IMG/VR virus record: IMGVR_UViG_3300043411_001575 | Coordinates: 32,001-96,000 of that record | Length of the DNA stretch: 64,000 nucleotides | Direction: 5' to 3' (one strand) | Source: a virus | Part shown: piece after piece, positions 45,254 to 64,000 of the stretch | Layout: every line of letters begins with the position of its first letter | Position numbering within the stretch: the stretch's first letter is position 1 | The notes under the pieces: generated by a model | The model's database searches: none | What the model saw: only the letters and a program-made list of their open reading frames with translations | Told to the model about the DNA's origin: nothing | Made by a program: the position numbers and the translations under genes

Positions 45254-45383
45254 GCGATGGTAGGTAAATCGAAGCCGAAATTTGAATTTATTACAAATGT
45301 TTAATCAAGGCACTAATATTGAATTTTGCACGTCAGCCCCACTATTGCAAAACCGATGTTATAAGCCGTTTTTATTTTAAATT

Positions 45384-45758
45384 ATGGAAGTTACATATTA
45401 TCAATTCTGTAAAACAATAGCTGATGATTTAAAAATTGAGTTAAATCAAAAGCATAAAACTAAATTAAGTCAATTTCCAATAAAAAATGGAAAAAGAAAA
45501 ATCAATTCTTTTCACGATGCTATAATTGTAGATTCTAATGGAAATGAATATCCATATATGCTGGGGCAAACAATTAGGAACGAAGAAAAATTAATTGATT
45601 TTGATTACATATACATTACACTACCAAAAGGATTAGAACAAATATTAAAAGAAACTGGAATTAATTTAAAGTCAGAAAAATGCAAAATTTGTGAAGGTGG
45701 TGGATGGTACAGTCAAGGAACAAGGTATTTTTATAAAGATATTTCTTGTGAAGTGTAG
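45384..45758 (+). CDS. cassette hypothetical protein (cassette 45358-45780)
   Basis: Flanked by GTTATAAGCCGTTTT / AAAATGGCTTATAAC. Confidence 0.75.
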   Translation: MEVTYYQFCKTIADDLKIELNQKHKTKLSQFPIKNGKRKINSFHDAIIVDSNGNEYPYMLGQTIRNEEKLIDFDYIYITLPKGLEQILKETGINLKSEKCKICEGGGWYSQGTRYFYKDISCEV

Positions 45759-45773
45759 TCGTTCTAAAATGGC

Positions 45774-45896
45774 TTATAACGTATGGTGCTATACTTAGTG
45801 CCGATTTATGAAAACGAATGTTAATTATTAAAAACAAAAAGATGTTAAAAAACGAAATAACCGAGAATGAGGCATTGAGTATAGCACGTGTTAGTG
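45774..45896 (+). repeat. attC-like hairpin 1 (contains MTase start codon)
   Basis: TAAC..GTGCTATACTTAGTGCC/GGCATTGAGTATAGCAC..GTTA. Confidence 0.85.
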
Positions 45897-46882
45897 GCAG
45901 TACTTTTGTGAATGCTGATTGCTTCGATGTTTTTCCTTTTATTGAGGATAAATCAATTGATGCTATTATTTGCGATTTACCTTATGGAACTACTGCTTGT
46001 GCTTGGGATATAATAATACCTTTTGAGAAATTATGGAAAGAATATGATAGAGTTTTAAAAGACAAAGGAAGTATTATTTTGACAGCATCACAACCATTTA
46101 CAAGTATTTTACTTATGAGTAATTTAAAATGGTTTTCTCACGAATGGATTTGGGAAAAAGAAATGGGTAGCAATTTTATGTTAGCAAACAAGCAACCACT
46201 AAAAATACACGAAAGTATATTGGTTTTTAATAGACCAATAAATGAAGTGAAAAATGATTTTGGCAAATACTCGGATATTAGGGATTATTTTCAAGAAGAA
46301 AGAAAAAAAACAAATTTATCGTATAAAGAAATAAACGAAAAATGTTTTGGTAGTGCTTCAAATGGTGGTGGTATGGCTTCAAATATTTTAACGAGTTATA
46401 AGAAAGGTTGGAGTTTTCCAAGTAAAGAAAAATATGAAGCATTGCAAAAAATAGGTATTTGTAAAACTCCTTATAATGAATTGAAAAATGAATATTTAAA
46501 AGCATTTGAGATTGATAGAACATACAACCCTATAAAAACCGATGGTAAACCTTATGTAATTAAACAAGGTGGCGTTTCTGATGTTTACGGAAATAAAGAA
46601 AACAATATCACAACTGAAAATAACGGAGATAGATTTCCAACTTCAATTTTAAAAATCAAACGTGATAAAGAAAAAATACACCCAACAGCTAAACCGCTTG
46701 AACTTATGGAATACCTTGTTAAAACATATACCAACGAGGGCGACACGGTTTTAGATAATACAATGGGTTCAGGTACAACAAACTTAGCCTGTATCAAATT
46801 AAATCGCAAATCAATTGGAATAGAAAAGGAAAAACAATATTACGATGTGGCTGTTCGGAGGGCTTCGGAGTATTGCCACTAA
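45818..46882 (+). CDS. N6/N4 DNA methyltransferase (beta class) with internal HTH-like insertion
   Basis: DLPYG motif IV, HPTAKP, VLDNTMGSGTT motif I. Confidence 0.92.
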   Translation: MLIIKNKKMLKNEITENEALSIARVSGSTFVNADCFDVFPFIEDKSIDAIICDLPYGTTACAWDIIIPFEKLWKEYDRVLKDKGSIILTASQPFTSILLMSNLKWFSHEWIWEKEMGSNFMLANKQPLKIHESILVFNRPINEVKNDFGKYSDIRDYFQEERKKTNLSYKEINEKCFGSASNGGGMASNILTSYKKGWSFPSKEKYEALQKIGICKTPYNELKNEYLKAFEIDRTYNPIKTDGKPYVIKQGGVSDVYGNKENNITTENNGDRFPTSILKIKRDKEKIHPTAKPLELMEYLVKTYTNEGDTVLDNTMGSGTTNLACIKLNRKSIGIEKEKQYYDVAVRRASEYCH

Positions 46883-47007
46883 CGTATGGTGCTATACGAA
46901 GGAGGCGATTATTAGCACTAAAGTTGATGCGGAGTACAAATGTTTGTTTAACCACAAATGTTTCTACGGAGTACCAAACCGCCTCTTTTGTATAGCACGT
47001 GTTACCT
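46877..47007 (+). repeat. attC-like hairpin 2
   Basis: GTGCTATACGAAGGAGGCG/CGCCTCTTTTGTATAGCAC. Confidence 0.85.
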
Positions 47008-47073
47008 GCTGGTGTGGTTTATTTAGCAGGATTTTGATTTGAAAACGAATAGAAAATTTAAAAAGTTTTAGAA

Positions 47074-47319
47074 ATGGGAACACAAAAAATGTATGCAGTA
47101 GAATATAAAACGGATAGTAGTTCTACTTATGAAATATTTGAAAATTATGATGATGCCTTAGCGTTTGCTAATAGTAATGAAAATGCTATGTTTTTATTTA
47201 CGGCAGACTTTAATAAGGATAGAATTTATTTAGATGGCGAAACTTGGAATTATGATGATTTTGCCGACACTTTTATTAACCAAGAAACAATTGAAACTTA
47301 TGAAATATATGGGAAGTAA
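47074..47319 (+). CDS. cassette hypothetical protein
   Basis: ORF in cassette 47001-48095. Confidence 0.7.
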   Translation: MGTQKMYAVEYKTDSSSTYEIFENYDDALAFANSNENAMFLFTADFNKDRIYLDGETWNYDDFADTFINQETIETYEIYGK

Positions 47320-48067
47320 GGCAAGATTTAGTAAAGATATTTTGCCGATAATATTAAAAGATAGAACAGTCGAACAATGGTATGTTGAACCATTTGCAGG
47401 AGGAATGAACGCTATTTGCGAAGTAGGTGGTAATAGACTTGCTAACGATAAAAACTATCACTTAATTGAAATGTGGAAAGGATTAGCAAACGGAATTAAA
47501 TATCCAACGGACATACCAAAAGAATTGTATAACCTTGCAAGAGATGTGTATAATGGCAGAGAAACAAGGTTTGAACATAAAATGAATATGGCTGACGATA
47601 TGGTAGGATGGATTGGTTGGATGGGTTCTGCAAATGGAAGATTTTTTGATGGTGGATATAGTGGGAAATCAAACACAAAAATTGGAACTGTCCGTGATTA
47701 CATTAAGGAAGCAATAAGTAATATTGAAAAGCAATTACCAAAGATGGCAGGTGTTAAATTTGAAAATAAAGATTATACCAAATTGGAAATTCCTAATTGC
47801 AGTATTATTTATTGCGACATTCCATATCAAGGAACAAAACAATATTCAACATCAAAAGATTTTAACCATTCTAATTTTTGGAATTGGTGTAGAGAAAAAG
47901 CAAAGCAAGGACATACGATTTTTGTAAGTGAATACAATGCACCTGATGACTTTGAATGTGTTTGGCAAAAAGAGGCAAAATCTTCTTTATCGGCAAACGG
48001 CAAAATCGGTGGCAATAAGTTGAGCGTGGAAAAACTTTTTAAATTTTCTCCCACAAATGTTCAATAG
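47300..48067 (+). CDS. Dam/D12-class N6-adenine DNA methyltransferase
   Basis: MKYMGSK, YVEPFAGG, AND, YCDIPY, FVSEY. Confidence 0.92.
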   Translation: MKYMGSKARFSKDILPIILKDRTVEQWYVEPFAGGMNAICEVGGNRLANDKNYHLIEMWKGLANGIKYPTDIPKELYNLARDVYNGRETRFEHKMNMADDMVGWIGWMGSANGRFFDGGYSGKSNTKIGTVRDYIKEAISNIEKQLPKMAGVKFENKDYTKLEIPNCSIIYCDIPYQGTKQYSTSKDFNHSNFWNWCREKAKQGHTIFVSEYNAPDDFECVWQKEAKSSLSANGKIGGNKLSVEKLFKFSPTNVQ

Positions 48068-48088
48068 TAGCACTATCGTAGCACTTGC

Positions 48089-48154
48089 AGGTAACAGACA
48101 AGGCTATATTCTCGTGCCGTTTTTCACGGCATGGAATTATAGCCGATGTTATGC
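48089..48154 (+). repeat. attC-like hairpin 3 (same stem as hairpin 16)
   Basis: GGCTATATTCTCGTGCCG/CGGCATGGAATTATAGCC. Confidence 0.85.
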
Positions 48155-48233
48155 AAGTGGGTTGGGTTGTGGGTGGCTCGTTTCAAAACTCTTTTTCTTA
48201 TTTTTTTAGGGAGGGATTTTTTATTTTCTTTTT

Positions 48234-48266
48234 TACTTGCCAATTGACAATTTATGTTTATCTTTG
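48234..48266 (+). promoter_or_regulatory. cassette promoter/operator, repeated at 51771, 56831, 61529, 62489
   Basis: TACTTGCYAATTGACAATTTATGTTTATCTTTG: TTG -33 and TATCTTTG -7 around a near-palindrome. Confidence 0.85.
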
Positions 48267-48308
48267 TAGCAGATAATTTAATACTAACAATTTAAAAACA
48301 AAAACAAA

Positions 48309-48524
48309 ATGAGCAAAATCACAGACTTTTGGGTGGTTACTAAACCAACGAAAAATTCAACATTGGCAGATATTCTGTTTAGTGCAGATATGAAACGAAT
48401 GGAATTGCAGTTCAAAGGAGGATTGACTGGAAAGGAAATTGTTGGAACATTTACCACAAAAGACCAAGCTACAAAGGTTGCTAAAATGGCACTTTTAAAA
48501 GCTGGTGCAAATGTAAAATTTTAA
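48309..48524 (+). CDS. cassette hypothetical protein
   Basis: First ORF after cassette promoter. Confidence 0.75.
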   Translation: MSKITDFWVVTKPTKNSTLADILFSADMKRMELQFKGGLTGKEIVGTFTTKDQATKVAKMALLKAGANVKF

Positions 48525-48542
48525 CATCTAAAACGAAACAAA

Positions 48543-48734
48543 ATGGGAATTTCAAAAACACTTGACCAAAGCAGAACCATTGTTTACGAAAACAAACTCG
48601 TTACTTGGGTTGATTGGGCATCTAAGGATGTTCACAAAGGAACAATTAAAATAAAAATACTCGGCAGGAAAACTTACATAACTGTTGATTACAACGACTT
48701 GAAAAATGTAAGTGTTACTAAAATTAAAAAATAA
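48543..48734 (+). CDS. cassette hypothetical protein
   Basis: ORF with A-rich leader. Confidence 0.7.
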   Translation: MGISKTLDQSRTIVYENKLVTWVDWASKDVHKGTIKIKILGRKTYITVDYNDLKNVSVTKIKK

Positions 48735-48739
48735 AAACT

Positions 48740-48907
48740 ATGGCAACTAAACCTAAAGCACCGTTTCAGGTAGGCGGTTACAAAGTAAAATGGTCTACAT
48801 CAAATAAAACTTGGCAGATTTGGAAAGGCAGTAAATTGATTGACGATTTTACAACTAAAGAAAGTGCAAGAACAAAAGCCGAAAGACTAACAAGAGGCTC
48901 TTACTAA
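48740..48907 (+). CDS. cassette hypothetical protein (55 aa, below ORF-track cutoff)
   Basis: MATKPKAPFQ...RLTRGSY. Confidence 0.7.
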   Translation: MATKPKAPFQVGGYKVKWSTSNKTWQIWKGSKLIDDFTTKESARTKAERLTRGSY

Positions 48908-48917
48908 AAACAAAACA

Positions 48918-49070
48918 ATGAAACTATCTGTAACAGAATATGCAAAACAGCTTGGTGTAACTCGTCAGGCTGTTTTGTTACAGATTAAAGAAAAAAGGCT
49001 ACCAAAAAATGTTATAGTTGAAAAAATTGGTAATACTTATCTCTTATCTGTGCGTGGGCAAAAAAAATAA
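48918..49070 (+). CDS. small HTH DNA-binding protein, copy 1
   Basis: MKLSVTEYAKQLGVTRQAVLLQIKEKRLP. Confidence 0.85.
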   Translation: MKLSVTEYAKQLGVTRQAVLLQIKEKRLPKNVIVEKIGNTYLLSVRGQKK

Positions 49071-49091
49071 GAAAAAGAGTTTTGAAATGTT

Positions 49092-49213
49092 GCATAACGT
49101 TATCTCGCTTGGCGAGGTTTGGGGTTGAAACCCTATAATTTCTAATTTAAAACAAAATATAATGAACACCGATATAAACGAAAATCCCAAATCTTGCCAA
49201 ACGAGTGTTATGG
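49092..49213 (+). repeat. attC-like hairpin 4 (contains MTase start)
   Basis: CTCGCTTGGCGAGGTTTGGG/CCCAAATCTTGCCAAACGAG. Confidence 0.85.
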
Positions 49214-49998
49214 TTAGTGCGGATTTGATTAACAAAATTCATAATGAAAACTGCCTTGAAACAATGGCGAAAATGCCTGATAATTTTATTGATTTAACTG
49301 TTACCTCACCGCCTTATGATGGATTAAGAACGTACAACGGTTATAGTTTTGATTTTGAAAGTGTCGCAAAAGAATTATACCGAGTTACTAAAGAGGGTGG
49401 TGTTGTAGTGTGGGTTGTGGGCGATGCAACAGTAAAAGGCAGTGAAAGTTTAACATCATTTAAACAAGCTATTTATTTCAAAGATATTGGGTTTTCTGTA
49501 GAAACTATGATTTATGAAAAGGCGCAATCTTGCTTTGGTAGTAACACCTATTATTTGCAGGCGTTTGAATATATGTTTGTTTTAACTAAAGGCACTAAAC
49601 CAAAAGCAATTAATCATTTACGTGACCGCAGAAATGAGCGTAGTGGCGTTGAGAGTATGGGAAAAGGAGGCTTAAATAAAAACGGCACTAAAACAGACAG
49701 GCATAAAAAAGAAATGCTCGAATATGGTAAGCGAAAAAATATATGGAAATACGGAGTGGGTGGAGGCAAGACGGGACATCCTGCGGTATTTCCTGAACAG
49801 CTCGCAAACGACCATATAATTTCGTGGAGCAATGAAAACGATATTGTTTACGATTGCTTTAGCGGAAGCGGAACAACTGCTAAAATGAGTATAATTAATA
49901 GCAGGCGATGGATAGCGTCTGAAATGAGTGCTGAATATTGCGATATTATAAAAGAACGTATTAAAGTAGATAAAGGTCTTTTTGAAAACGTATCGTAG
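49162..49998 (+). CDS. N4-cytosine/N6 DNA methyltransferase
   Basis: TSPPY, HPAVFP, YDCFSGSGTT. Confidence 0.92.
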   Translation: MNTDINENPKSCQTSVMVSADLINKIHNENCLETMAKMPDNFIDLTVTSPPYDGLRTYNGYSFDFESVAKELYRVTKEGGVVVWVVGDATVKGSESLTSFKQAIYFKDIGFSVETMIYEKAQSCFGSNTYYLQAFEYMFVLTKGTKPKAINHLRDRRNERSGVESMGKGGLNKNGTKTDRHKKEMLEYGKRKNIWKYGVGGGKTGHPAVFPEQLANDHIISWSNENDIVYDCFSGSGTTAKMSIINSRRWIASEMSAEYCDIIKERIKVDKGLFENVS

Positions 49999-50004
49999 CA
50001 TTAA

Positions 50005-50099
50005 CCATAACGGATGGTGCTATGAGCAGGTTTGCCTTGTAGAAATGTTCAAGTTACCGAAAATGTTATTGGCAAACTTGCTTATAGCACGTGTTATAC
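50005..50099 (+). repeat. attC-like hairpin 5
   Basis: GTGCTATGAGCAGGTTTGCC/GGCAAACTTGCTTATAGCAC. Confidence 0.85.
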
Positions 50100-50156
50100 G
50101 CTGGCACGGTAAATTCAGCAGAAACTTAATTTGAAAAACTAAAAGAAAAAATAAAA

Positions 50157-50735
50157 ATGAGCAAAGGAGATTTTACAACATTAGGAGCATCAGCACACTC
50201 AAAAGAAGAGCGTGAAGAAAATGACTTTTATGCAACAGACCCAAAAGCATTAGAGATATTCCTTGAACAAACAGGGATTGAATTGCGAAACGTATGGGAA
50301 TGTGCTTGTGGAGAAGGGCATTTGGCAAAAGTATTAGATGCAAGAGGATTGCTTGGAAGAGCAAGTGATTTGATTGATAGAGGTTATGGAATAACGGAGA
50401 GTAATTTCTACTACTTTTCTGAAATATGGGAAGGAGATATATTAACAAATCCACCATACGGAGATGCTATGAAATTTTGCCAACACGCTCTTGATTGTGT
50501 GGATGAAGGAAGTAAAGTAGTGATGCTTATGCGTATTCAATTCTTAGAAGGGCAAAGACGTAAACCTTTTCTTTTGAAAAACCCGCCAAAGTATGTTTAT
50601 GTTAGCAGTAGCCGATTGTTACTCGCTAAAAACGCAGACTTTGTAAAGTACAACACACCTTCCGCTAATTGCTATGCGTGGTATGTTTGGGAAAAAGGAT
50701 TTAAAGGCGAAACTACTTTACGTTGGTTTAATTAA
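50157..50735 (+). CDS. compact N6-adenine DNA methyltransferase
   Basis: DFYATDP, WECACGEG, ILTNPPY, YAWYVW. Confidence 0.9.
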   Translation: MSKGDFTTLGASAHSKEEREENDFYATDPKALEIFLEQTGIELRNVWECACGEGHLAKVLDARGLLGRASDLIDRGYGITESNFYYFSEIWEGDILTNPPYGDAMKFCQHALDCVDEGSKVVMLMRIQFLEGQRRKPFLLKNPPKYVYVSSSRLLLAKNADFVKYNTPSANCYAWYVWEKGFKGETTLRWFN

Positions 50736-50804
50736 AAAGTGCGTGGGAAGATTTTTATTTTTTCTCTCACAAATGTTGAATCGAAGAACGAATGTAGTGC
50801 TTGC

Positions 50805-50937
50805 GTATAACGGCATCGGGCTTTGTGTCCGTTGGCGACTTAACCCACCAATGTTAAATTAAAAAACGAAACTTGATATGAGTACAAATGATGAATTGAA
50901 AAACGAAACCGCCAATGGCACAAAACCCGTGTTATCG
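50805..50937 (+). repeat. attC-like hairpin 6 (contains ORF start)
   Basis: CGGGCTTTGTGTCCGTTGGCG/CGCCAATGGCACAAAACCCG. Confidence 0.85.
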
Positions 50938-51150
50938 GCTGGTTGGATTTCTGTAAAAGAGCAATTACCTGAATATTGGAGTCAACACCGAAATGATTAT
51001 GGAAGTGGTTACGTTCTTGGTTATACTAAATATGGTGAATGGGAAATAACTCAACTTTGGAATAATAAAGATTGGGAAGGTGATGATGACAATGAAGGTG
51101 ATTATATTACTCATTGGATGCCGTTGACCGTTCCACCAACTTGCCGATAA
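50878..51150 (+). CDS. DUF551 family protein
   Basis: WISVKEQLP...ITHWMPL..PP. Confidence 0.85.
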   Translation: MSTNDELKNETANGTKPVLSAGWISVKEQLPEYWSQHRNDYGSGYVLGYTKYGEWEITQLWNNKDWEGDDDNEGDYITHWMPLTVPPTCR

Positions 51151-51280
51151 CGTATCGTGGCTTTGTTGTCGTTGTGGCTATTTAAGACCAAACTTAACAA
51201 ATAATAACTAAAAATTAAATTTATGACTGAACTTTCAAAAAATGCCCAAGTGCCACAATGCGACAAAACCGCTGTTAGTG
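51145..51280 (+). repeat. attC-like hairpin 7 (contains ORF start)
   Basis: GGCTTTGTTGTCGTTGTGGC/GCCACAATGCGACAAAACC. Confidence 0.85.
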
Positions 51281-51621
51281 GCTGTGTTTTAGGATTACCT
51301 GAAATTGGAAAAACATATAATTGCTTTGATGATGGGAAAATAAGTAAAAGTAGAATGTATCAAGTTACAATAAGTGAAATAATCCCATTTGAAAAAGCCG
51401 ATAATGAATTGTTAGAATTATGGGAAGAAGAAGGATTACCGAGTTATTGGTTGTTTGAAAAAACAGATTATTTCATAAAATTTAAAAGTACAGAATTTAA
51501 AGACGAACCAAACGGAGTTTTTGCAAGAACTAAAAACGGTGGTTGGTTTGGTTTAGGGAACTATTGGAATAGTGGTAGATTAGATGTTGACGGCTCTTTA
51601 ACGCAAAGCTTGTCAACATAG
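51223..51621 (+). CDS. cassette hypothetical protein
   Basis: ORF crossing GTT junction at 51274. Confidence 0.75.
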   Translation: MTELSKNAQVPQCDKTAVSGCVLGLPEIGKTYNCFDDGKISKSRMYQVTISEIIPFEKADNELLELWEEEGLPSYWLFEKTDYFIKFKSTEFKDEPNGVFARTKNGGWFGLGNYWNSGRLDVDGSLTQSLST

Positions 51622-51622
51622 C

Positions 51623-51685
51623 CACTAACGGCATCCGTATAAGGGAAGTGCGAGGAACGAGCATTTACTTTATACGGTGTTAGCA
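51623..51685 (+). repeat. attC-like hairpin 8
   Basis: CCGTATAAGG/TTTATACGG. Confidence 0.8.
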
Positions 51686-51850
51686 AAGTGCGTTGGGCTG
51701 TGTGTTGGCTCGTTCCAAAACCATTTATTTTCTTTTTTTTGGGGAGGTTTTGAAAACTTTTTTACTAAAATACTTGCTAAATGACAATTTATATTTATCT
51801 TTGAACCATATTAACAATTAAAAAATAAAAACAATTAAAAAATAAAAACA

Positions 51851-52036
51851 ATGACAAAATTCGGAACAACAACTTGCCAATTTTACAACGGAACAGATTC
51901 AGTAACCGTAAATTCATCACTATTCAGAACCATTAGAGGTTGGGCTTCTACTGGTATTCCAAAAGATGCTATTAAAGGGGGAAGAAAGGTTTACGTTGCT
52001 AAAACAACTCTTGAACGCATTAAAAAAATTGCTTAA
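51851..52036 (+). CDS. cassette hypothetical protein
   Basis: ORF after cassette promoter 51771. Confidence 0.7.
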   Translation: MTKFGTTTCQFYNGTDSVTVNSSLFRTIRGWASTGIPKDAIKGGRKVYVAKTTLERIKKIA

Positions 52037-52221
52037 TGAGAATTTCTGTAACTGATTATGCAAAACAGCTTGGTGTAACTCGTCAAGCTGTTTTGTTACA
52101 GATTAAAGAAAAAAGGTTGCCTAATAATGTTAAGTCTGAAAAAATTGGCAACACTTACTCTTTAACTGTGGGTGGGCAAAAAAAGAATAAAAATGCTTCC
52201 AATAAACTACAATCGAAGTAG
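52036..52221 (+). CDS. small HTH DNA-binding protein, copy 2
   Basis: SVTDYAKQLGVTRQAV. Confidence 0.85.
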   Translation: MRISVTDYAKQLGVTRQAVLLQIKEKRLPNNVKSEKIGNTYSLTVGGQKKNKNASNKLQSK

Positions 52222-52236
52222 TATCGTAGCAATGGG

Positions 52237-52362
52237 GCATAACGGTTTCGGGCTTGGCGAAGTGGCTGAACTCGAAGCTAAATAGGATTACTAAACTTTA
52301 AAATTAAAAACGAATGTTAGATAGAATTACTGAACAGCCATTTTGCCAAACCCGTGTTATGT
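52237..52362 (+). repeat. attC-like hairpin 9 (near-identical to 12; contains MTase start)
   Basis: GGGCTTGGCGAAGTGGCTG/CAGCCATTTTGCCAAACCC. Confidence 0.85.
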
Positions 52363-56312: not shown

Positions 56313-56316
56313 TGTT

Positions 56317-56677: not shown

Positions 56678-56683
56678 TATTGG

Positions 56684-56903: not shown

Positions 56904-57188
56904 ATGAGCAAAGCAGGATTAACAAAATTTTTAGCAAAGTTCCCAGATGACACTAAAAGCTGGGCTAAAGCAACAGATGAAGTTCGTGATATTGCACGAA
57001 CAGCAAAAGAATATTACAATGAAATAGAAGGCAAAGATATTCAACCTTGCGATTTCCGTTCAATGAAAACGCCTTCCGAATGGAACACAAAAGGTAAAAG
57101 CTACATTTTTAAAGTGTATGATAAAATGAGTGCAAAAACAAAAACAGAGTTTAACGGCTATTTGAAAAGCCACTTTAATATTAAATAA
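56904..57188 (+). CDS. cassette hypothetical protein
   Basis: ORF after cassette promoter 56831. Confidence 0.75.
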   Translation: MSKAGLTKFLAKFPDDTKSWAKATDEVRDIARTAKEYYNEIEGKDIQPCDFRSMKTPSEWNTKGKSYIFKVYDKMSAKTKTEFNGYLKSHFNIK

Positions 57189-57189
57189 A

Positions 57190-57348
57190 ATGGAGCAACT
57201 ATCTGTAACCGATTATGCAAAATTGCTTGGCGTAACTCGTCAGGCGATTTTGTTACAGATTAAAGAAAAAAGGTTGCCGAAAAATGTTACAGCAAAAAAA
57301 ATCGGGAACACTTATCTACTATCTGTGCGTAGGCAAAAAAGAAAATAA
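57190..57348 (+). CDS. small HTH DNA-binding protein, copy 3 (52 aa)
   Basis: MEQLSVTDYAKLLGVTRQAIL. Confidence 0.85.
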   Translation: MEQLSVTDYAKLLGVTRQAILLQIKEKRLPKNVTAKKIGNTYLLSVRRQKRK

Positions 57349-57474
57349 ATGGTTTTGGAATGTTTGCTAACGGTGTGGGCTATGAGAAGTAAAACCCCTT
57401 TTTGTGCGGTGGATTTTGTAAATTTGTAATTATTAACTAAAACCTTTCGGAGTATAGGAAACCGAAATAAAGTT

Positions 57475-57720
57475 ATGGCAAAATCAGTAGCAATTTTTCA
57501 AGAAAAATCATCTAAAACAGGAAGTTTTATTGGTGATAAAATTTATTATTACAAAACAAAAAATCCTAATTGGTGGTTTGTTTCAGTTGGCAAAGCATAT
57601 TTAGGGACTGTGCCTGAATACGGAAGCGGAACAGGGCAATTTAAAAACAAGAAACAATACCCGACTATTGCTTCATTGGAAAAATACCACAAAGAAGATA
57701 ATATTCACAGAGTAGATTAA
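57475..57720 (+). CDS. hypothetical protein
   Basis: ORF followed by terminator. Confidence 0.75.
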   Translation: MAKSVAIFQEKSSKTGSFIGDKIYYYKTKNPNWWFVSVGKAYLGTVPEYGSGTGQFKNKKQYPTIASLEKYHKEDNIHRVD

Positions 57721-57730
57721 TGTTATTTAT

Positions 57731-57765
57731 GTAGTGGCTATGCCTTATTGTAGCCACTACTTTTT
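57731..57765 (+). terminator. intrinsic terminator
   Basis: GTAGTGGCTA-loop-TAGCCACTAC TTTTT. Confidence 0.8.
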
Positions 57766-57833
57766 AATCTTTTCACAGTTTTGAAAAAACTGAAAGAGTG
57801 CGTGGGCTTTTTCTTTTTTAATAATTTAATTGC

Positions 57834-57926
57834 CACTAACGTTGAAGGGCTTGGCGAAGGTGGGCTTGTAGGATGCTCAATTTTAGCAGAATGTTTCTGC
57901 CCACTTTTGCCAAACCCGTGTTATAT
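57834..57926 (+). repeat. attC-like hairpin 18
   Basis: GGGCTTGGCGAAGGTGGGC/GCCCACTTTTGCCAAACCC. Confidence 0.85.
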
Positions 57927-57996
57927 GAAGTGCCGACTTATTTACGTTGAAGCCAAATTGGAACACTAAACAGAAAAACAAAAAGAAAAAAAAGGG

Positions 57997-58809
57997 ATGG
58001 AATTAAATAAAATACATTTAGGAGATTGTTTAGAAGTAATGAAAACTTTGCCAAATGAAAGCATTGATTGTATTGTTACTTCACCGCCATATTGGTTACA
58101 AAGAGATTACGGATGGGATGGACAATGGGGTATGGAAGAAACGTTTTATGAGTATTTGGATAAATTGTTTTTAATGATGGATGAAGCAAAACGAATATTG
58201 AAAAACGATGGAACTATTTTTGTAAATATTGGCGATGGCTATGCAAGAACAGGTGGAAAATCATTAGGTAAAAAACAACCAAACGCTTTATTGTATGCAA
58301 CACAAGAAGGGATAAGGGGCGGAAATAACAAGGGAGTTGCAGGAATACAAGATAAAACATTACTACAAATACCATATCGTTTTTCTATTGGCTGTATTGA
58401 TAGAGGATGGATTTTGCGAAACAATATAATTTGGTTTAAAAGAAACGCAATGCCCGAAAGTGTAAAGGACAGATTTACAAAATCACACGAAGTAATATTT
58501 ATGTTTTCTAAAAACAAAGAATACTTTTTTGACGAAAAATTTGTAACACAAGATGTTTGGGATATTCCTTTAACTCCTAACGGCACAAAACATATAGCAT
58601 CTTACAATACTGATTTAATTGGCAGACCTATTGTTTGCGGTTGCAGAAAGGGTGGAATAGTATTAGATATGTTTTGCGGAGCAGGAACAACAGGAATAAG
58701 AGCATTAGAACTTGGGAGAAACTTTATAGGGATAGATGGTAAAAAGGAATACGTTGATATGGCACAACAAAGAATTAATGATATTGTATCACAACCACAA
58801 TTATTTTAA
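57997..58809 (+). CDS. N4-cytosine DNA methyltransferase
   Basis: TSPPY, NIGD.Y, W.K.NAMPESVKDR, VLDMFCGAGTT. Confidence 0.92.
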   Translation: MELNKIHLGDCLEVMKTLPNESIDCIVTSPPYWLQRDYGWDGQWGMEETFYEYLDKLFLMMDEAKRILKNDGTIFVNIGDGYARTGGKSLGKKQPNALLYATQEGIRGGNNKGVAGIQDKTLLQIPYRFSIGCIDRGWILRNNIIWFKRNAMPESVKDRFTKSHEVIFMFSKNKEYFFDEKFVTQDVWDIPLTPNGTKHIASYNTDLIGRPIVCGCRKGGIVLDMFCGAGTTGIRALELGRNFIGIDGKKEYVDMAQQRINDIVSQPQLF

Positions 58810-58881
58810 AAGTGCGGTGGCTTTTTTCTTTTTGTTTTTCCTTCACGGAACTTCAATTGGAAACGGTCAGCAAGGCATTTC

Positions 58882-58949
58882 ATATAACGACCGTGTGTTT
58901 ATGTCAGGTTTTGCTTTTCGCAAAACTTGCATTAAACACAATGTTAGCA
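58882..58949 (+). repeat. attC-like hairpin 19
   Basis: TGTGTTTATGTCAGGTTTTGC/GCAAAACTTGCATTAAACACA. Confidence 0.85.
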
Positions 58950-59059
58950 AAGTGCGTTGGCTTGTGGGTGGCTCGTTGTATTTAATAAAAAAGAAAAAAA
59001 GGAAGGCGTGTGTTGGCTATTTTAATTTGTAAATTTGTATAAACATAAATCATATAAAA

Positions 59060-59896
59060 ATGAGTAGATATAATAATAGTGGAGATATTGAAGAAGTTTT
59101 ACCGAAAGAGGTATTACAGAAAATAAAAGACAAATTCAAAGCAAAGAGTTTTAAAAAACTTGGTTCAGGTAGATATGGAAGTGCTTTTAAAATAAGTCCA
59201 AAAAAGGTTTTGAAAATCACAAAAGATTTGAAAGAGTATGAATATGCTAAAAAAATTGAAGGACTGAAAAATAAACATATTGCTGATGTTTATGAAACAT
59301 ATCACTTTGAATATGGCGACACAAAGTATGCTGTAATAATTAAAGAATATTGCAATATTGGAGAAGCATATTTTGATAAACTAATAGATAGTTTTGCTGA
59401 ATACACGGGAAACGAAATGTCATTATCATTTGTTTCATCTGAATTTTTGCACGGAGATTTATCAAAGGCGGTTTTTGATAACTACTTTAAAAAGTATAAG
59501 CAAAATCAAGGTTACGCAACAGGATTTGCAGATGATTGGCAAGAAATGATAATGGAATTAAAGAACAAAAAAATCTATGTTAAAGATTTTAACGGTGCTA
59601 ATATTGGAACGAAGCCGAGTAATAATAACATCTGCATCATTGAACTTGGATTAGGTTATTGGGAAACCATAAAATTACCTGATGCAGACAAAATAATATT
59701 AAAGGAAGGTGGAACTATAATTGGAAATTTTGAACCGCTTGGCTCTGCAAAAGAATTAGGAATTAAACCGAAGATTGAGGGACACGATATGATTGCCATT
59801 TGTGATTGTGGAGAAAAATTTAGTTACCAAAACTCAAAGAAGAATATTGTTTGGGAATGTCCTGAATGTAAAAGAAGAAATAAGATTGTAGAATGA
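59060..59896 (+). CDS. protein-kinase-like enzyme with C-terminal Zn ribbon
   Basis: LGSGRYGSAF, VLKIT, KDFNGANIG, IELG; CDCG...CPEC. Confidence 0.8.
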   Translation: MSRYNNSGDIEEVLPKEVLQKIKDKFKAKSFKKLGSGRYGSAFKISPKKVLKITKDLKEYEYAKKIEGLKNKHIADVYETYHFEYGDTKYAVIIKEYCNIGEAYFDKLIDSFAEYTGNEMSLSFVSSEFLHGDLSKAVFDNYFKKYKQNQGYATGFADDWQEMIMELKNKKIYVKDFNGANIGTKPSNNNICIIELGLGYWETIKLPDADKIILKEGGTIIGNFEPLGSAKELGIKPKIEGHDMIAICDCGEKFSYQNSKKNIVWECPECKRRNKIVE

Positions 59897-59969
59897 TTTT
59901 AAACCTTTTCACAATTTTGAAAAAATTGAAGGGAGCGTGGGCTTTTTCTTTTTTATTAAATACAATGTT

Positions 59970-60299
59970 TGCTAACGCATATCGGCTAAACGCAGTATTT
60001 AAAAACTTTTGCGAGGGAAATTCGTAAATTTGACAATTATAAACAATTAAAAAACAAAACAAAATGGCAACAGAAAAAAAGTATGCGGTTTTCGCTACAT
60101 TCAAAACAACAGGTAGAGAAAGTGAAATGACACTACCTATGACAAAAAAAGAAGCTGAAAAGGCTTTATCTGCTTTAAAGGAAAAATCAGCCGAGTTCAA
60201 AAAATTGAACTTTAAAGGATTTAAGATAAAGGCAGTTTAATTATCTCATTAGTGCGGTGGGAAAGTTTTTAAATATTGTCGTTTTAGCCGTTGTTATGC
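59970..60299 (+). repeat. attC-like hairpin 20 with gene in loop
   Basis: CGGCTAAACGCAGTATTTAAAAACTTT...AAAGTTTTTAAATATTGTCGTTTTAGCCG. Confidence 0.8.
60064..60240 (+). CDS. hypothetical protein nested in attC-like loop (58 aa)
   Basis: MATEKKYAVF...KIKAV; TAAATTTG upstream. Confidence 0.7.
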   Translation: MATEKKYAVFATFKTTGRESEMTLPMTKKEAEKALSALKEKSAEFKKLNFKGFKIKAV

Positions 60300-60357
60300 G
60301 AAGGTGTGGCAATTCCAAAATTTCAAATTATAGACAAAACTTTCTTGCCACACTTTT

Positions 60358-60488
60358 GCATAACGTTCCGAGTATTGGAGCAGTGCGGATTTAAACCACA
60401 AATGTTGATATAAAAAATGAAACTTAAATAAACCGATAACCTTTATTAGAAGCACTAAACCCGCATTGCTTACAATACTGTGTTATAG
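60358..60488 (+). repeat. attC-like hairpin 21
   Basis: AGTATTGGAGCAGTGCGG/CCGCATTGCTTACAATACT. Confidence 0.85.
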
Positions 60489-60540
60489 GGAGTGTTTTTA
60501 AAATTTTAGCGGGGATAATTACTAAATTTACAATAAAAAA

Positions 60541-60930
60541 ATGTCAGCAAAATCATATCAAGCACCTGCCAATAAAAAAGTTTATAGAGCAGAAAAAAAA
60601 GGAGTAAAAGGAAACTGGTTTGCATTAAGTAAAGATGATGCAATAGGTTACGGAAATTTTGGTTACAAAATTGTTTCAAAATCAATAGGAGGCAAGAAGT
60701 TTTTATATGCTTCTGAATTAGAAGATGGCGGAACTTATTTTGATACCATAATCAAAAAATTCCCTAAACTTTTCAAAATAAATAAAGGTATTTTATGGAA
60801 TGACTATGAATTGAAAGTATCTCCAAGTGAACTATGGAGAGAGTGTGAAGCATTTTTAAAAAAAGAAGGTTATTCTGGAATATTTACAGGGAAGAAACTT
60901 TCTATTGATTATGAACTTTTTTTGTTTTAG
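60541..60930 (+). CDS. cassette hypothetical protein, possibly ADP-ribosyltransferase-like
   Basis: VYR...GNWFA.....A..Y...GYSGI pattern; weak. Confidence 0.55.
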   Translation: MSAKSYQAPANKKVYRAEKKGVKGNWFALSKDDAIGYGNFGYKIVSKSIGGKKFLYASELEDGGTYFDTIIKKFPKLFKINKGILWNDYELKVSPSELWRECEAFLKKEGYSGIFTGKKLSIDYELFLF

Positions 60931-60959
60931 GTGCGTGGGAAAAATTTTAAAAACATTTG

Positions 60960-61306
60960 CTATAACGTATATCGGCTAAATGCAGTATTTAAAAACTTTT
61001 GCGTGGGAATTTAATTCGTAAATTTGATAATTATAAACCAATAAAAAACAAAATAAAATGGCACAAACAAAAAAAGAGAAACGAGTAATTGCAAGAGCAA
61101 GATACATCGTTGAAGTATTCGCAAAAAGTCATTATGATTCAAGAGATTTGTTTAAGAAAATGACTAAAGAAGAAAAGAAAATAACCATTGATTACATCGA
61201 GAGAATTGGCGAAAGTGCCGTTAGTAGGTATTTATATCAATGGTATTAATTCTCTCATTAGTGCGGTGGGAAAGTTTTTAAATATTGAGTTTAGCCGTTG
61301 TTATGC
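60960..61306 (+). repeat. attC-like hairpin 22 with gene in loop
   Basis: Same arms as hairpin 20, different gene. Confidence 0.8.
61058..61249 (+). CDS. hypothetical protein nested in attC-like loop
   Basis: ORF. Confidence 0.7.
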   Translation: MAQTKKEKRVIARARYIVEVFAKSHYDSRDLFKKMTKEEKKITIDYIERIGESAVSRYLYQWY

Positions 61307-61364
61307 GAAGGTGTGGCAACTGCAAAATTTCAAATTATAGACAAAACTTTCTTGCCACACTTTT

Positions 61365-61432
61365 GCATAACGTTTTGCAGCTAAACGCTGATTTTGTTCT
61401 TCACAAAATTTGCGATTTAGGTGCTGTTACCT
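61365..61432 (+). repeat. attC-like hairpin 23
   Basis: GCAGCTAAACGCTGATTTTGT/ACAAAATTTGCGATTTAGGTGC. Confidence 0.8.
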
Positions 61433-61602
61433 GCTGATGCGGTTTCATAGTACAAATGCTGATTTGGAACATAAAACTAAGGGTTTAATTTTTTTCTTTT
61501 TTTTAGTGGAGGAAAACTTTTTCTTTTTTACTTGCTAATTGACAATTTATGTTTATCTTTGTAGCATATAATTTAACAATAACAATTTAAAACAAAAACA
61601 AA

Positions 61603-61896
61603 ATGGCTGACATCGCATTACCAAAATCAAACCTTTACCTTGAAGGTAGCGGACTTGACACAAACGGAAACAAAGTTGTAAAACTTGGAATTTCAAGTTT
61701 ACCGAAAAACTTTAGTATTCAAACTAATGGCAATTTGCCGAAAACTGGAAGTATCCTTCGTGGCTTGAAAACCAAAAAGGATATGGAAAGCGTGAGTAAA
61801 TCCGATTTGCAAATAATTTCAAAAGAAGTTGTTGCATACATTAAGGAGTTTGGCTCAAAACTGCAAAGAGAAAAATTAAGAACTTACAACTCTTAA
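61603..61896 (+). CDS. cassette hypothetical protein
   Basis: ORF after cassette promoter 61529. Confidence 0.75.
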   Translation: MADIALPKSNLYLEGSGLDTNGNKVVKLGISSLPKNFSIQTNGNLPKTGSILRGLKTKKDMESVSKSDLQIISKEVVAYIKEFGSKLQREKLRTYNS

Positions 61897-61898
61897 TT

Positions 61899-62063
61899 AT
61901 GGAGCAACTATCTGTAACCGATTATGCAAAATTGCTTGGTGTAACTCGCCAAGCAATTTTGTTACAGATAAAAGAAAAAAGGTTGCCGAAAAATGTTACA
62001 GTTAAAAAAATTGGTAATACTTACTCCTTATCTGTGCGTGGGCAAAAAAAAGAAAAAAAATAA
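61899..62063 (+). CDS. small HTH DNA-binding protein, copy 4 (54 aa)
   Basis: MEQLSVTDYAKLLGVTRQAIL. Confidence 0.85.
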   Translation: MEQLSVTDYAKLLGVTRQAILLQIKEKRLPKNVTVKKIGNTYSLSVRGQKKEKK

Positions 62064-62113
62064 ACCCGACTTCTACCACAAATGTTCATTCGGAGCAACA
62101 AAGTAGCATTTGC

Positions 62114-62188
62114 AGGTAACGGACGAGGCTATGAGCAGTTGAGCGTAGCCTGTGCGATGGAAAGAATTGCTTATAGCCTGTGTTATGC
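62114..62188 (+). repeat. attC-like hairpin 24 (loop holds an empty GTGCGATGG site)
   Basis: AGGCTATGAGCAGTT/AATTGCTTATAGCCT. Confidence 0.85.
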
Positions 62189-62277
62189 AAGTGCGTTGGC
62201 TTGTGGGTGGCTCGTTTCAAAACTCTTTTTCTTATTTTTTAGGGAGGGATTTTTATTTTCTTTTTTAACAACAAAAA

Positions 62278-62484
62278 ATGGCTGATTCAATCGGTGGCTT
62301 AGAAGGCACAAAAACTAAATTTTTCATAGATGTAAAAGTTCCTATCAGAGCAGGGATGGAGTTTGGCACAAAGAATTATAAAATAAGAACAATCGGATAT
62401 GAGGTTTTTCGACAATACTTTGATACTAAAGAAAAGGATATGCAAGTAGGTAGGCAAAGAATTGAAAGAAAAATAAATAACTAA
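62278..62484 (+). CDS. cassette hypothetical protein
   Basis: ORF inserted ahead of cassette promoter. Confidence 0.6.
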   Translation: MADSIGGLEGTKTKFFIDVKVPIRAGMEFGTKNYKIRTIGYEVFRQYFDTKEKDMQVGRQRIERKINN

Positions 62485-62562
62485 CTTTTACTTGCTAATT
62501 GACAAATTATGTTTATCTTTGTAGCAGATAATTTAATATTAACAATTTAAAAACAAAACAAA

Positions 62563-62733
62563 ATGGCAAAAAGTAGTTATTACAAGTACGCAGTTGTAGC
62601 GGTAAACACAAAAACAGGTGAAGAAAGTTTAGTATGCAAAGTTCGTGCTGCTGGGGACTTAAACAACATTTTACACGGATTAGAAAAAGCAGTAGGAAGC
62701 TCTCCTATTAAATACAAATCTAAAAAACTGTAA
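62563..62733 (+). CDS. cassette hypothetical protein (56 aa)
   Basis: MAKSSYYKYAVV...; after promoter 62489. Confidence 0.7.
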   Translation: MAKSSYYKYAVVAVNTKTGEESLVCKVRAAGDLNNILHGLEKAVGSSPIKYKSKKL

Positions 62734-62735
62734 AA

Positions 62736-62957
62736 ATGGAACTATCTGTAACAGAATATGCAAAATCGCTTGGCGTAACTCGTCAGGCGATTTTGTTACA
62801 GATTAAGGAAAAAAGGTTGCCTAAAAATGTTACGGTTAAAAAAATTGGTAATACTTATTCTTTATCTGTGCGAGGGCAAAAAAAAAATAAGAAAAAGAGT
62901 TTTGAAATGTTGCATAACGTTATCAGGCTTGGCGAAGTGCCGCTACTCGAAACTTAA
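62736..62957 (+). CDS. small HTH DNA-binding protein, copy 5 (reads through into next hairpin)
   Basis: MELSVTEYAKSLGVTRQAIL; longer A tract shifts the stop out of frame. Confidence 0.85.
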   Translation: MELSVTEYAKSLGVTRQAILLQIKEKRLPKNVTVKKIGNTYSLSVRGQKKNKKKSFEMLHNVIRLGEVPLLET

Positions 62958-63006
62958 ATTTTAGCACTAAACTATCCTGCGGCATTTTGCCAAACCCGTG
63001 TTATGG
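62912..63006 (+). repeat. attC-like hairpin 25
   Basis: GGCTTGGCGAAGTGCCGC/GCGGCATTTTGCCAAACC. Confidence 0.85.
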
Positions 63007-63051
63007 GATAGTTTTAAAAACCTTTTAGGGTGGGCATTAAAAAACGAAATA

Positions 63052-63510
63052 ATGATAATAGCAATTGATTTTGACGGAACTTGCGTAACACACGAATTTC
63101 CCAAAGTGGGCAAAGACATTGGTGCTGTGCCTGTATTGAAAGAGTTGGTTAAAAATAACCACCAATTAGTTTTGTTTACAATGAGAAGTGATATAGTTAA
63201 TCCAACTGGCGAGGATAACGAATTGCACCTTGAAAGTGGGAACTATTTAACTGATGCAATTGAATGGTTTAAACAAAACGAAATACCGCTTTATGGAATA
63301 CAAACCAACCCGACACAGCACACTTGGACTACAAGCCCAAAAGCATACGCACAACTTTACATTGATGATGCTGCTTTAGGTTGCCCACTTTTGGTTGACA
63401 TTGTAAAAGATGGTGACGAAAGCATTAAGCAAGTTGGACGACCTTATGTTAATTGGGAGAAGGTAAAAGAAATGCTAATTGATAAAGGAATTATTGATGA
63501 TGAGGACTAA
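63052..63510 (+). CDS. HAD-superfamily phosphatase
   Basis: IAIDFDGT, LFTMR, K..A.LYIDD. Confidence 0.88.
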   Translation: MIIAIDFDGTCVTHEFPKVGKDIGAVPVLKELVKNNHQLVLFTMRSDIVNPTGEDNELHLESGNYLTDAIEWFKQNEIPLYGIQTNPTQHTWTTSPKAYAQLYIDDAALGCPLLVDIVKDGDESIKQVGRPYVNWEKVKEMLIDKGIIDDED

Positions 63511-63542
63511 CCCGTGCGGTGGGAAAAGGTTTTTAAAATTTC

Positions 63543-63908
63543 CCATAACGGTTCGTGGCTATAAGAAGTAAAACCCATTTTTGAGCGGTGGAAAATTTCG
63601 TATCTTTGTAACGCAATATTGCAAATAAATATAATACTTTAAAAAATGGGAAAAAAAATTGCTTACGTTATTATGGGTGGCGATGATTATGTAACAGAAT
63701 CTTCATCATCAAGGAACAATGGATATGCTTTTACGCATAATCTACAAGGTGCAACTTTTTTTGATTCCAAAGAAAAAGCAGATAATTGTATTAAAAACAA
63801 AAATCTCGAATTTCATCTTGGAAGAAAAGTAAAAGCAAAAAAAGTTTCATTGGTTTAATCTAAGCGGTGCGTTGGCAGGGGTTTTATTTCTTATAGCCCC
63901 TGTTATAG
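63543..63908 (+). repeat. attC-like hairpin 26 with gene in loop
   Basis: Same arms as hairpin 13, different gene. Confidence 0.8.
63646..63858 (+). CDS. hypothetical protein nested in attC-like loop
   Basis: ORF; TATCTTTG upstream. Confidence 0.7.
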   Translation: MGKKIAYVIMGGDDYVTESSSSRNNGYAFTHNLQGATFFDSKEKADNCIKNKNLEFHLGRKVKAKKVSLV

Positions 63909-63923
63909 CATCGTTTTAATGTG

Positions 63924-64000
63924 CTATAACGGTTTGCGTATATGAGAAGTGGCACTTGCACGAACTTAAAATTTAGCACAAATGTTTCTGTGCCATTTCT
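63924..64000 (+). repeat. attC-like hairpin 27, truncated by window end
   Basis: AGAAGTGGCAC/GTGCCATTTCT. Confidence 0.75.

Follow-up and report, generated by a model that had tools for sequence, protein, structure and literature searches.

A 64,000-nucleotide stretch of viral DNA (the window; bases 32,001–96,000 of the 169,658-bp linear IMG/VR virus record IMGVR_UViG_3300043411_001575) carries a cassette array that begins at position 45254 and is probably an integron-like gene-capture platform in a phage, served by a Xer-like recombinase other than IntI and stocked with at least 17 orphan DNA methyltransferases. Coordinates marked 'genome' refer to the whole record, and all others to the window. 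The repeated architecture is real and lies far beyond chance. Each unit contains a hairpin-forming segment (B) followed by a segment that runs from GTTR to YAAC (A), and in natural phage isolates whole units are inserted or deleted cleanly, at the DNA level, at AAC↓ beside a recombinase gene (the arrow marks the junction). An initial annotation, made from the letters alone, had proposed a structure-specific platform for gene capture and shuffling in a large phage; the junction variants and clean unit insertions described below support this proposal, and the system works like an integron without being a member of that family in the strict sense.

Weight matrices for cassette starts and ends, trained on 38 clear cassettes and used alongside a hairpin scan, recovered 27 YAAC ends and 26 GTTR starts between 45254 and 64000, the same count as in the initial annotation, with the two alternating almost perfectly. 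The consensus of the 38 cassettes is A-T-K-G-C-N-N-M-T-A-A-C↓G at the 3' end and A-N-C-C-N-N-T↓G-T-T-A-K-N-N-G-C-N-G at the 5' end. At a score of at least 9 bits, 57 of the 67 end matches and 53 of the 62 start matches in the 169.7-kb record fall within the array, which makes up 23% of it. High-scoring motifs outside the array (genome 19833, 62397, 156128 and 167013) have no hairpin context and were judged to be chance matches. The left edge had been placed correctly at 45254, where the leftmost hairpin starts with a degenerate 5' boundary, TAA↓G in place of AAC↓G. The reported array of more than 18 kb is likewise real, but it does not end with the window at 64000: it continues for another 19.7 kb (~22 further units), so that the full array spans genome 77,254–115,656 (~38 kb, ~50 units; the last cassette end is at window-equivalent 83,656). 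A search for GTTR...YAAC pairs gave an unbroken tiling from genome 77,358 to 115,656 and only scattered AT-rich chance pairs elsewhere, and the density of TAACG climbs at genome 75 kb and drops at ~116 kb. The record is ~82% complete (CheckV) and has a GC content of ~30% and promoter motifs of the Bacteroidota type; the host of this phage, whose genome is at least 170 kb, is a member of the Bacteroidota.

The cassette boundaries combine an invariant core with covarying arms. TAAC and GTTA are ~94–96% conserved, and among 49 cassettes with 34 different arm hexamers the positions 4–8 after GTT form Watson-Crick pairs with the cassette's own 3' end in 45–47 cases; when arms were paired with those of other cassettes, 32% of positions 4–15 were Watson-Crick. 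Position 10 of this R stem is a conserved G.T in 36 of the 49. The complementarity that the initial annotation had described, between each cassette start and the bases before its own YAAC, is thus borne out across the array. All 44 short inter-cassette segments fold as hairpins, with 5–6 unpaired bases after AAC and 1–2 before GTT, and a median folding z-score of −4 against shuffles. When 16 hairpins were aligned, 14 of the 17 stem pairs proved to have compensatory changes, in agreement with the earlier description of a conserved geometry in divergent sequence. The arm covariation and the constant hairpin geometry uphold the comparison with the R''/R' logic of integrons: each site, like attC, is an imperfect inverted repeat in which an unpaired spacer separates an R box (..YAAC / GTTR..) from an L box, in dimensions that differ from those of canonical attC sites. 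The + strand, which carries AAC in the 5' arm, is the more stable strand in 41 of the 44 hairpins (p = 2e-8), owing to the conserved G.T wobbles.

Three lines of comparison, namely linkage within the array, the contexts of one recurrent hairpin and the site beside the recombinase gene, locate the junction on the YAAC side alone. The mobile unit accordingly consists of a B segment and the A segment downstream of it, with a recombination point at or within AAC (AAC↓G). Of 30 hairpin pairs that are at least 80% identical, 14 share the start of the downstream A segment and one shares the upstream A end; alike A ends are followed by alike hairpins in none of 17 cases, and alike A starts are preceded by alike hairpins in 11 of 25. 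Unit 13 has a methyltransferase-leader hairpin from which one 22-mer is present, as an exact match, in 114 IMG/VR contigs (L018–L131). The 71 distinct junctions of this hairpin show 65 variants of the 12-mer upstream of the AAC motif, while past AAC↓G most positions of the 5' arm are 93–100% conserved, so that the step in conservation falls exactly at AAC. Many open reading frames (ORFs) have their start in a hairpin loop and extend across GTTR into the body of the cassette, which would make GTTR an odd place for a junction; a model in which GTTR and YAAC are both junctions was rejected on the linkage within the array and on the insertions in cultured phages described below, where B and A arrive together. 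The view of the hairpins as separators between cassettes, taken in the initial annotation, is the part of it that had to be given up, as each hairpin travels with the body downstream of it and GTTR is internal to the unit. Either loop can hold a gene: four units in the window combine a gene in the hairpin loop with an 'empty' A hairpin of 29 or 72 nt, which is what a circular, rod-like intermediate would allow.

No integrase had been in view of the initial annotation, and none lies in the window; 19.7 kb beyond it, directly after the last cassette, is the gene of a Xer-like tyrosine recombinase (genome 115,676–116,572). Its open frame begins ~20 nt past the last cassette end, with a probable ATG at ~55 nt, on the same strand as the cassettes, and the product matches PF00589 (E-values of 5e-45 and 2e-43). 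The initial annotation had suggested searching the rest of the genome for a tyrosine recombinase, an HUH nuclease or a reverse transcriptase; this enzyme is the sole recombinase of the record (~82% of the genome), in which the searches for an HUH Y1 transposase, a reverse transcriptase and a serine recombinase gave nothing. The best-scoring model is NF040815 (XerA / integron integrase; 206 bits against a cut-off of 220), followed by XerD and XerC, and the IntI model TIGR02249 gives a match that is split in two (155 bits against a cut-off of 265). The best solved relative is XerA of P. abyssi. The IntI-specific insertion (I2 helix) of the catalytic domain is absent: residues 167–191 of the query (25 residues) stand opposite 68 residues (180–247) of VchIntIA (2a3v). 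A 16-member family alignment shows no variation at the catalytic residues R122, K147, H211, R214, H237 and Y246. The recombinase gene is followed by a 253-aa ORF that matches nothing in Pfam or NCBIfam and for which the relatives have no homologue, and there is no conserved partner gene in this position.

Upstream of the recombinase ATG, ~50 bp are conserved between this record (G000) and six relatives, of which L004, L005 and L006 (77–79% amino-acid identity) and L017 (58%) were found through the enzyme and L217 and L219 through the site alone; a broader pattern search for the site gained these two informative metagenome loci and no more. At least five different cassette ends abut this attI-like site at AAC↓. 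Among G000 and the relatives found through the enzyme, only G000 and L005 share an end motif, and the metagenome loci L217 and L219 have identical attI-like sites next to different cassette ends. This evidence for an insertion site is comparative, not biochemical. Identical cassette order in all relatives, the outcome that the initial annotation had named as speaking against its proposal, is the opposite of what is seen, with the relatives carrying different cassettes at the same junction. A separate observation concerns the module as a whole: between L003 (3600–4520) and L004, L005 and L006 conservation is limited to the recombinase gene and the site upstream of it (~75% nucleotide identity) and the DNA downstream is unrelated, so site and recombinase may themselves move together between phage backbones.

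The resemblance of the enzyme to Xer proteins raises the question of a double-stranded exchange of the Xer/dif type, in which duplex boundaries would be bound by a phage or host Xer and the A and B segments would be independent modules with inverted sites. The pdif modules of Acinetobacter plasmids are of this kind: they are Xer-dependent, their sites are conserved 28-bp duplexes and both borders of a module are junctions. A Xer-type enzyme and alternating modules flanked by inverted sites are common to pdif and the array described here. Many cassette ends also look like Xer half-sites (...GCGCATAA-C), the A and B segments alternate and either may be empty or loaded with a gene, and in 16 of the 30 alike hairpin pairs the same hairpin precedes unrelated bodies. 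By contrast, a duplex Xer site needs conserved arms, and those of the array differ between sites (34 R hexamers in 49 cassettes); the boundaries of the hairpin segments are not mirror images, with spacers of 5 nt and 2 nt; the breakpoints in the linkage and junction data lie at the YAAC side only; and the units inserted in cultured phages are B and A together. In place of two arms of ~11 bp around a fixed 6–8-bp spacer with exchange at both borders, as in pdif and Xer/dif, we find variable arms, unequal spacers and a one-sided junction, and we regard a duplex exchange as an unlikely explanation.

Natural variants of such arrays were sought in cultured phages. Megablast of window positions 30000–50000 against isolate phages gave a single short unrelated match and no close backbone relative, and no relative of the 389-aa gene to the left of the array was found in IMG/VR. 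The comparison of cassettes therefore used isolates of Polaribacter phage Freya in place of near-identical genomes of this phage. Searches with tblastn identified recombinase homologues in cultured flavobacterial phages, among them ten Freya isolates from one host strain in the North Sea, which differ in length and in the offset of the recombinase gene. Freya_9 and Freya_10 share 100% identity across the 3,793 nt and 446 nt that flank a clean 307-bp unit, bounded by ...CCAAC↓ and ...CTAAC↓, and Freya_5 and Freya_6 differ in the same manner by a clean 472-bp unit. Both insertions are directly upstream of the recombinase homologue (31% identical). Each inserted unit consists of a hairpin with a ribosome-binding site (RBS) and ATG, followed by a GTTR...YAAC body, and its ORF starts in the hairpin and crosses GTTR.

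A second cultured phage, Polaribacter phage P12002L (L132, 32300–29150, minus strand), carries at least four units with three methyltransferases in the same YAAC↓G...T↓GTTR architecture. Its array ends in ...GTGCCTAAC↓, followed by a AAAATCAATTA motif that resembles the attI-like site and is a remnant of it; no recombinase gene is present. Two attC sites have been predicted in P12002L with HattCI and Infernal, one of which proved to be a substrate for IntI1 in E. coli (Qi et al., 2023; PMC9892861). The likeness to our array is one of architecture, and the P12002L array is probably the published CALIN (cluster of attC sites lacking an integron integrase), now with a candidate cognate enzyme family.

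These variants also bear on the possibility that the stems are RNA or regulatory structures of a polycistronic transcript (processing sites, terminators or translational controls), with the recombinase an unrelated lysogeny integrase and the variation a product of homologous or illegitimate recombination at repeated hairpins. The G.T wobbles do favour the strand of transcribed sense, the RBS and ATG in the hairpin loops could place translation under the control of folding, and P12002L keeps its array without any integrase; the Freya enzyme, moreover, has been taken as the integrase of lysogeny in a study that mentions neither cassettes nor integrons (Bartlau et al., 2021; PMC8776804). Against this stand isolates whose differences are entire units that break precisely at AAC, with no flanking homology shared past that point, one hairpin behind 65 different upstream ends with the conservation step at the same position, and the different cassettes that abut a conserved site at the start of the recombinase gene, in phages and in bacterial chromosomes. 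In addition, the hairpins have no Rfam family match, and two sub-threshold STnc390 matches, inside repeated small helix-turn-helix-like ORFs, were dismissed. A purely RNA-level explanation is quite improbable on these grounds, and RNA roles may still be real as secondary functions that coexist with the DNA-level role.

It is also conceivable that repeated hairpins and methyltransferase ends led the assembler to concatenate cassettes of several phage genotypes. The sequence comes from a linear metagenomic contig with recurrent near-identical modules, and the contigs of its relatives break right at the array. The same unit architecture is, however, found in the finished genomes of cultured phages (Freya and P12002L) and in bacterial chromosomes, and both edges of the array are anchored in unique sequence. 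Chimerism could alter the order or number of the cassettes and not the nature of the array, and we consider an assembly artefact very improbable as its explanation.

For the integron-like platform that we favour, the data suggest the following mechanism. Along the + strand a unit consists of C/G at the junction, segment B, GTTR with an R arm of 10–15 nt, and the body of A, ending in the complementary R arm and YAA(C). Segment B in turn comprises 4–5 unpaired bases, a long L stem with a loop that often holds an RBS, an ATG and the first codons, the other L arm and 1–2 unpaired bases. In the circle formed by an excised unit, the pair of R arms and the L arms would come together as a single long and imperfect rod, made up of an R box, an asymmetric internal loop and an L box, which is the design of attC. 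Strand exchange by the recombinase would take place in the 5' arm of the folded + strand, at AAC or immediately beside it, and units would be inserted at the attI-like site beside the recombinase's own gene. The + strand would correspond to the classical 'bottom strand', with the order 5'-..YAA↓C, hairpin, GTTR..-3', then the insertion site and the recombinase in sense; the classical bottom strand is reportedly cleaved at AA↓C in its 5' arm. The cassette genes would then lie on the folding strand, directed toward the recombinase, and be expressed from their own promoters or from start codons in the hairpin loops. We infer that catalysis is by this recombinase, that the substrate is folded single-stranded DNA and that the + strand is the strand used.

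Several observations weigh against this interpretation. The link between recombinase and cassettes is circumstantial, consisting of adjacency and co-occurrence, and the homologue in Freya has the published assignment to lysogeny mentioned above. The IntI insertion contacts the extrahelical bases in classical attC recombination, so that in an enzyme that lacks it a single-strand mechanism cannot be assumed by homology. The strand asymmetry of the hairpins is equally expected from RNA structure on the coding strand, and the alike hairpins that precede unrelated bodies fit a shared attC type but also an exchange at GTTR. Finally, the combination of metagenomic assembly and repeated modules means that the cassette order could be partly chimeric, and the break of the relatives' contigs at the array points in the same direction.

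Related arrays are found in bacteria. Among 80 bacterial loci with homologues of the recombinase (36–52% identity), 18 carry tiling arrays, and every bacterial array inspected adjoins the recombinase gene. In Flagellimonas, Ferruginibacter, Chryseobacterium, Maribacter and others (L150, L153, L184, L187, L190, L206) the array precedes the gene and shares the AAC↓G geometry, with the cassette ORFs on the opposite strand, which is the canonical integron layout. In Aureibaculum, Roseivirga, a Bacteroidales metagenome-assembled genome and Desulfitobacterium (L145, L156, L175, L182) it is downstream and mirrored. In the array of a Flavobacterium chromosome (L015), the last cassette, 4.2 kb long and with genes for SulP and NhaA transporters, lies directly against the recombinase gene. 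Judged by ungapped match lengths, none of these bacterial homologues has the IntI insertion. Surveys with IntegronFinder report essentially no complete integrons in Flavobacteriia (10.1101/2022.02.28.482270). We see an even chance that these systems form a second, previously unrecognised class of integron, with a plain Xer-like recombinase that lacks the IntI domain, widespread in Bacteroidota chromosomes (in the canonical layout) and in phages (with the genes inverted), the phages trading a shared pool of anti-restriction methyltransferases and accessory genes. Such a class could represent the ancestral state of integrons or an independent invention of folded-hairpin recombination.

The cassettes carry mostly DNA methyltransferases, in line with the load of methyltransferases and small unknown genes described in the initial annotation: all 16 N6_N4 methyltransferase matches of the record and its single D12 match lie in the array, on the + strand. 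No C5 methylase is present. Within the window the array also encodes a DUF551 protein, an ORF with a weak resemblance to Dam and numerous small ORFs that belong to no assigned family. All cassette ORFs are on the strand of the recombinase gene and point toward it, and 21 Bacteroidota-type promoter motifs in the array are on the + strand and three on the − strand. The leader 22-mer, present in 114 viral contigs, was found in none of 401 sampled Bacteroidia genomes, which suggests a cassette pool that circulates among phages. From its contents the array would be an exchangeable store of anti-restriction and accessory genes common to phages, with the anti-restriction role a presumed one.

Three recurrent elements of the cassettes were noted in passing. 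The leader hairpin encodes an N-terminal peptide, ..EQPFCQTRV.., is near-identical in more than 100 viral contigs of very different sizes and looks like a standardised translation-start adaptor for methyltransferase cassettes. Five paralogous ORFs of 50–73 aa (48918–49070, 52036–52221, 57190–57348, 61899–62063 and 62736–62957), each the last gene of a promoter-bearing cassette, appear by eye to encode helix-turn-helix, excisionase-like proteins; they have no Pfam match, attract the sub-threshold STnc390 matches and could be recombination directionality factors or regulators. A G-rich element (GTGCGTKGG...) followed by a T-rich run recurs at the starts of promoter-bearing cassettes (48150–48215, 51685–51745, 56745–56810, 58945–58985 and 62185–62245) and just before some cassette ends (e.g. 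50738–50770, 57795–57825 and 59930–59960), and may be a terminator or insulator.

All features listed here are on the + strand. The promoter that the initial annotation had placed ahead of the array corresponds to a promoter-like Bacteroidota −7 motif (TAnnTTTG) at 44986–45006, which is present but weak as evidence, its −33/−7 spacing being less than ideal. A 69-aa ORF follows (45044–45253), the TAA stop of which abuts the first hairpin. Unit 1 (45254–45780) pairs this leftmost hairpin with an A segment at 45358–45780 that encodes a 124-aa ORF without assigned function. The 109-nt hairpin of unit 2 (45781–46883; A 45890–46883) has an RBS and ATG in its loop, from which an N6_N4 DNA methyltransferase ORF (45818–46882) crosses GTTR, and unit 3 (46884–48095; 117-nt hairpin, A 47001–48095) holds an 81-aa ORF and the D12-class adenine methyltransferase. 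A promoter (TTG-N-TAnnTTTG at 48237) belongs to unit 4 itself (48096–49098; 52-nt hairpin, A 48148–49098), which holds four small ORFs; the final one is helix-turn-helix-like by eye and has no Pfam match. Another N6_N4 methyltransferase is encoded by unit 5 (49099–50011; 108-nt hairpin with ATG in the loop, A 49207–50011), and the weak Dam-like match belongs to a 192-aa ORF in unit 6 (50012–50811; 81-nt hairpin, A 50093–50811). In units 7 (50812–51151; 119-nt hairpin, A 50931–51151) and 8 (51152–51629; 122-nt hairpin, A 51274–51629) the ATG is in the hairpin loop; they encode the DUF551 protein and a 132-aa ORF without assigned function, respectively.

Unit 9 (51630–52243) has a 49-nt hairpin and an A segment at 51679–52243 with a promoter and two small ORFs; its R arms do not match and it looks like a hybrid. 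Methyltransferase-leader hairpins of 112 nt introduce the N6_N4 methyltransferases of unit 10 (52244–53148; A 52356–53148) and unit 13 (54782–55620; A 54894–55620), the latter being the source of the 22-mer. Between them lie unit 11 (53149–54226; 117-nt hairpin, A 53266–54226), with three small ORFs, and unit 12 (54227–54781; 80-nt hairpin, A 54307–54781), with a 101-aa ORF. Unit 14 (55621–56027) is a gene-loaded hairpin with a 76-aa ORF in its loop and an empty 29-nt A hairpin at 55999–56027. A 60-aa ORF is found in unit 15 (56028–56323; 82-nt hairpin, A 56110–56323) and a 100-aa ORF in unit 16 (56324–56690; 119-nt hairpin with ATG in the loop, A 56443–56690), followed by a promoter, a 94-aa ORF and a helix-turn-helix-like ORF in unit 17 (56691–57371; 52-nt hairpin, A 56743–57371). 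The irregular unit 18 (57372–57840) has a hairpin-like start without a GTTR partner, an 81-aa ORF and a normal CTAAC end, and is probably a rearranged cassette; this unit and the A segment of unit 9 look like scars of recombination at non-cognate sites or of deletions.

An N6_N4 methyltransferase in unit 19 (57841–58888; 79-nt hairpin, A 57920–58888) and a 278-aa ORF without assigned function in unit 20 (58889–59976; 54-nt hairpin, A 58943–59976) are followed by two gene-loaded hairpins with empty 72-nt A hairpins, unit 21 (59977–60364; 58-aa ORF, A 60293–60364) and unit 23 (60967–61371; 63-aa ORF, A 61300–61371), on either side of unit 22 (60365–60966; 117-nt hairpin, A 60482–60966, 129-aa ORF). 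Promoters and helix-turn-helix-like ORFs recur in unit 24 (61372–62120; 54-nt hairpin, A 61426–62120), together with a 97-aa ORF, and in unit 25 (62121–62918; 61-nt hairpin, A 62182–62918), together with two small ORFs. Unit 26 (62919–63549; 81-nt hairpin, A 63000–63549) encodes a 170-aa ORF, and unit 27 (63550–63930) is again a gene-loaded hairpin (70-aa ORF) with an empty 29-nt A hairpin at 63902–63930. The next hairpin begins at 63931 and runs to the window edge at 64000, beyond which the remaining ~22 units lead to genome 115,656 and to the attI-like site and recombinase gene.

In comparison with classical integrons (class 1 and the chromosomal integrons of Vibrio), the array has in common the cassette organisation, imperfect inverted-repeat sites with AAC/GTT cores, complementarity of the bases after GTT to the far end of the cassette, and the retention of site structure while sequence diverges; a tyrosine recombinase beside the insertion site, with the newest cassette adjacent to it, is likewise shared. 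With the + strand taken as the bottom strand, unit, AAC, attI and integrase in sense follow one another in the canonical order. The differences are equally clear: the recombinase lacks the insertion that defines IntI in the strict sense, the R stems are 10–15 bp in place of 7, and the internal loop is asymmetric, 4–5 by 1–2 bases. Integron cassettes in the strict sense are mostly promoterless, point away from the integrase and are driven by the cassette promoter Pc at attI or intI, whereas here the opposite strand carries the genes, which face the integrase, many units have a promoter of their own or an RBS and ATG supplied by the loop, and genes occur in either loop. The host replicon, moreover, is a phage.

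The promoter-stem-loop (PeSL) cassettes of T4-type phages, which bracket small accessory genes with stem-loops in a hyperplastic region, resemble the array in that small phage accessory genes lie between stem-loops. They differ from it in that PeSLs are not known to have a dedicated recombinase, an invariant AAC/GTT core or a defined insertion site. Closer counterparts are the phage clusters of at least two attC sites without an integrase, P12002L included, which have been treated as stray parts of integrons (Qi et al., 2023; PMC9892861). These CALINs are the same type of element, with the same units carrying methyltransferases in P12002L; the array described here differs from them in its ~50 units, candidate cognate non-IntI recombinase, attI-like site and natural insertion variants, as against two predicted sites. 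On the enzyme side, the IntI insertion is not fully conserved within the 'integron-like' subgroup of simple tyrosine recombinases (Smyshlyaev et al., 2021; PMC8138268). Our recombinase resembles this subgroup in scoring best on NF040815 and in also matching the XerD, XerC and IntI models. In the literature searched, no function or cassette array is described for members of the subgroup that lack the insertion, and full-text searches returned neither a cassette platform driven by such an enzyme nor a large phage-borne array.

Integrons are the textbook gene-capture system of bacteria, defined by IntI, and in phages they are known only as stray attC clusters. If the interpretation given here is true, phages have a complete capture platform of their own, and the IntI-specific domain is not required for a cassette system of the attC style. 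It would explain why flavobacterial phage isolates of one host and site differ by small blocks of genes beside an 'integrase', why metagenomic phage contigs break at the array and how one phage comes to hold at least 17 orphan methyltransferases. A compact recombinase with long, programmable hairpin sites could, in addition, serve as a genetic tool.

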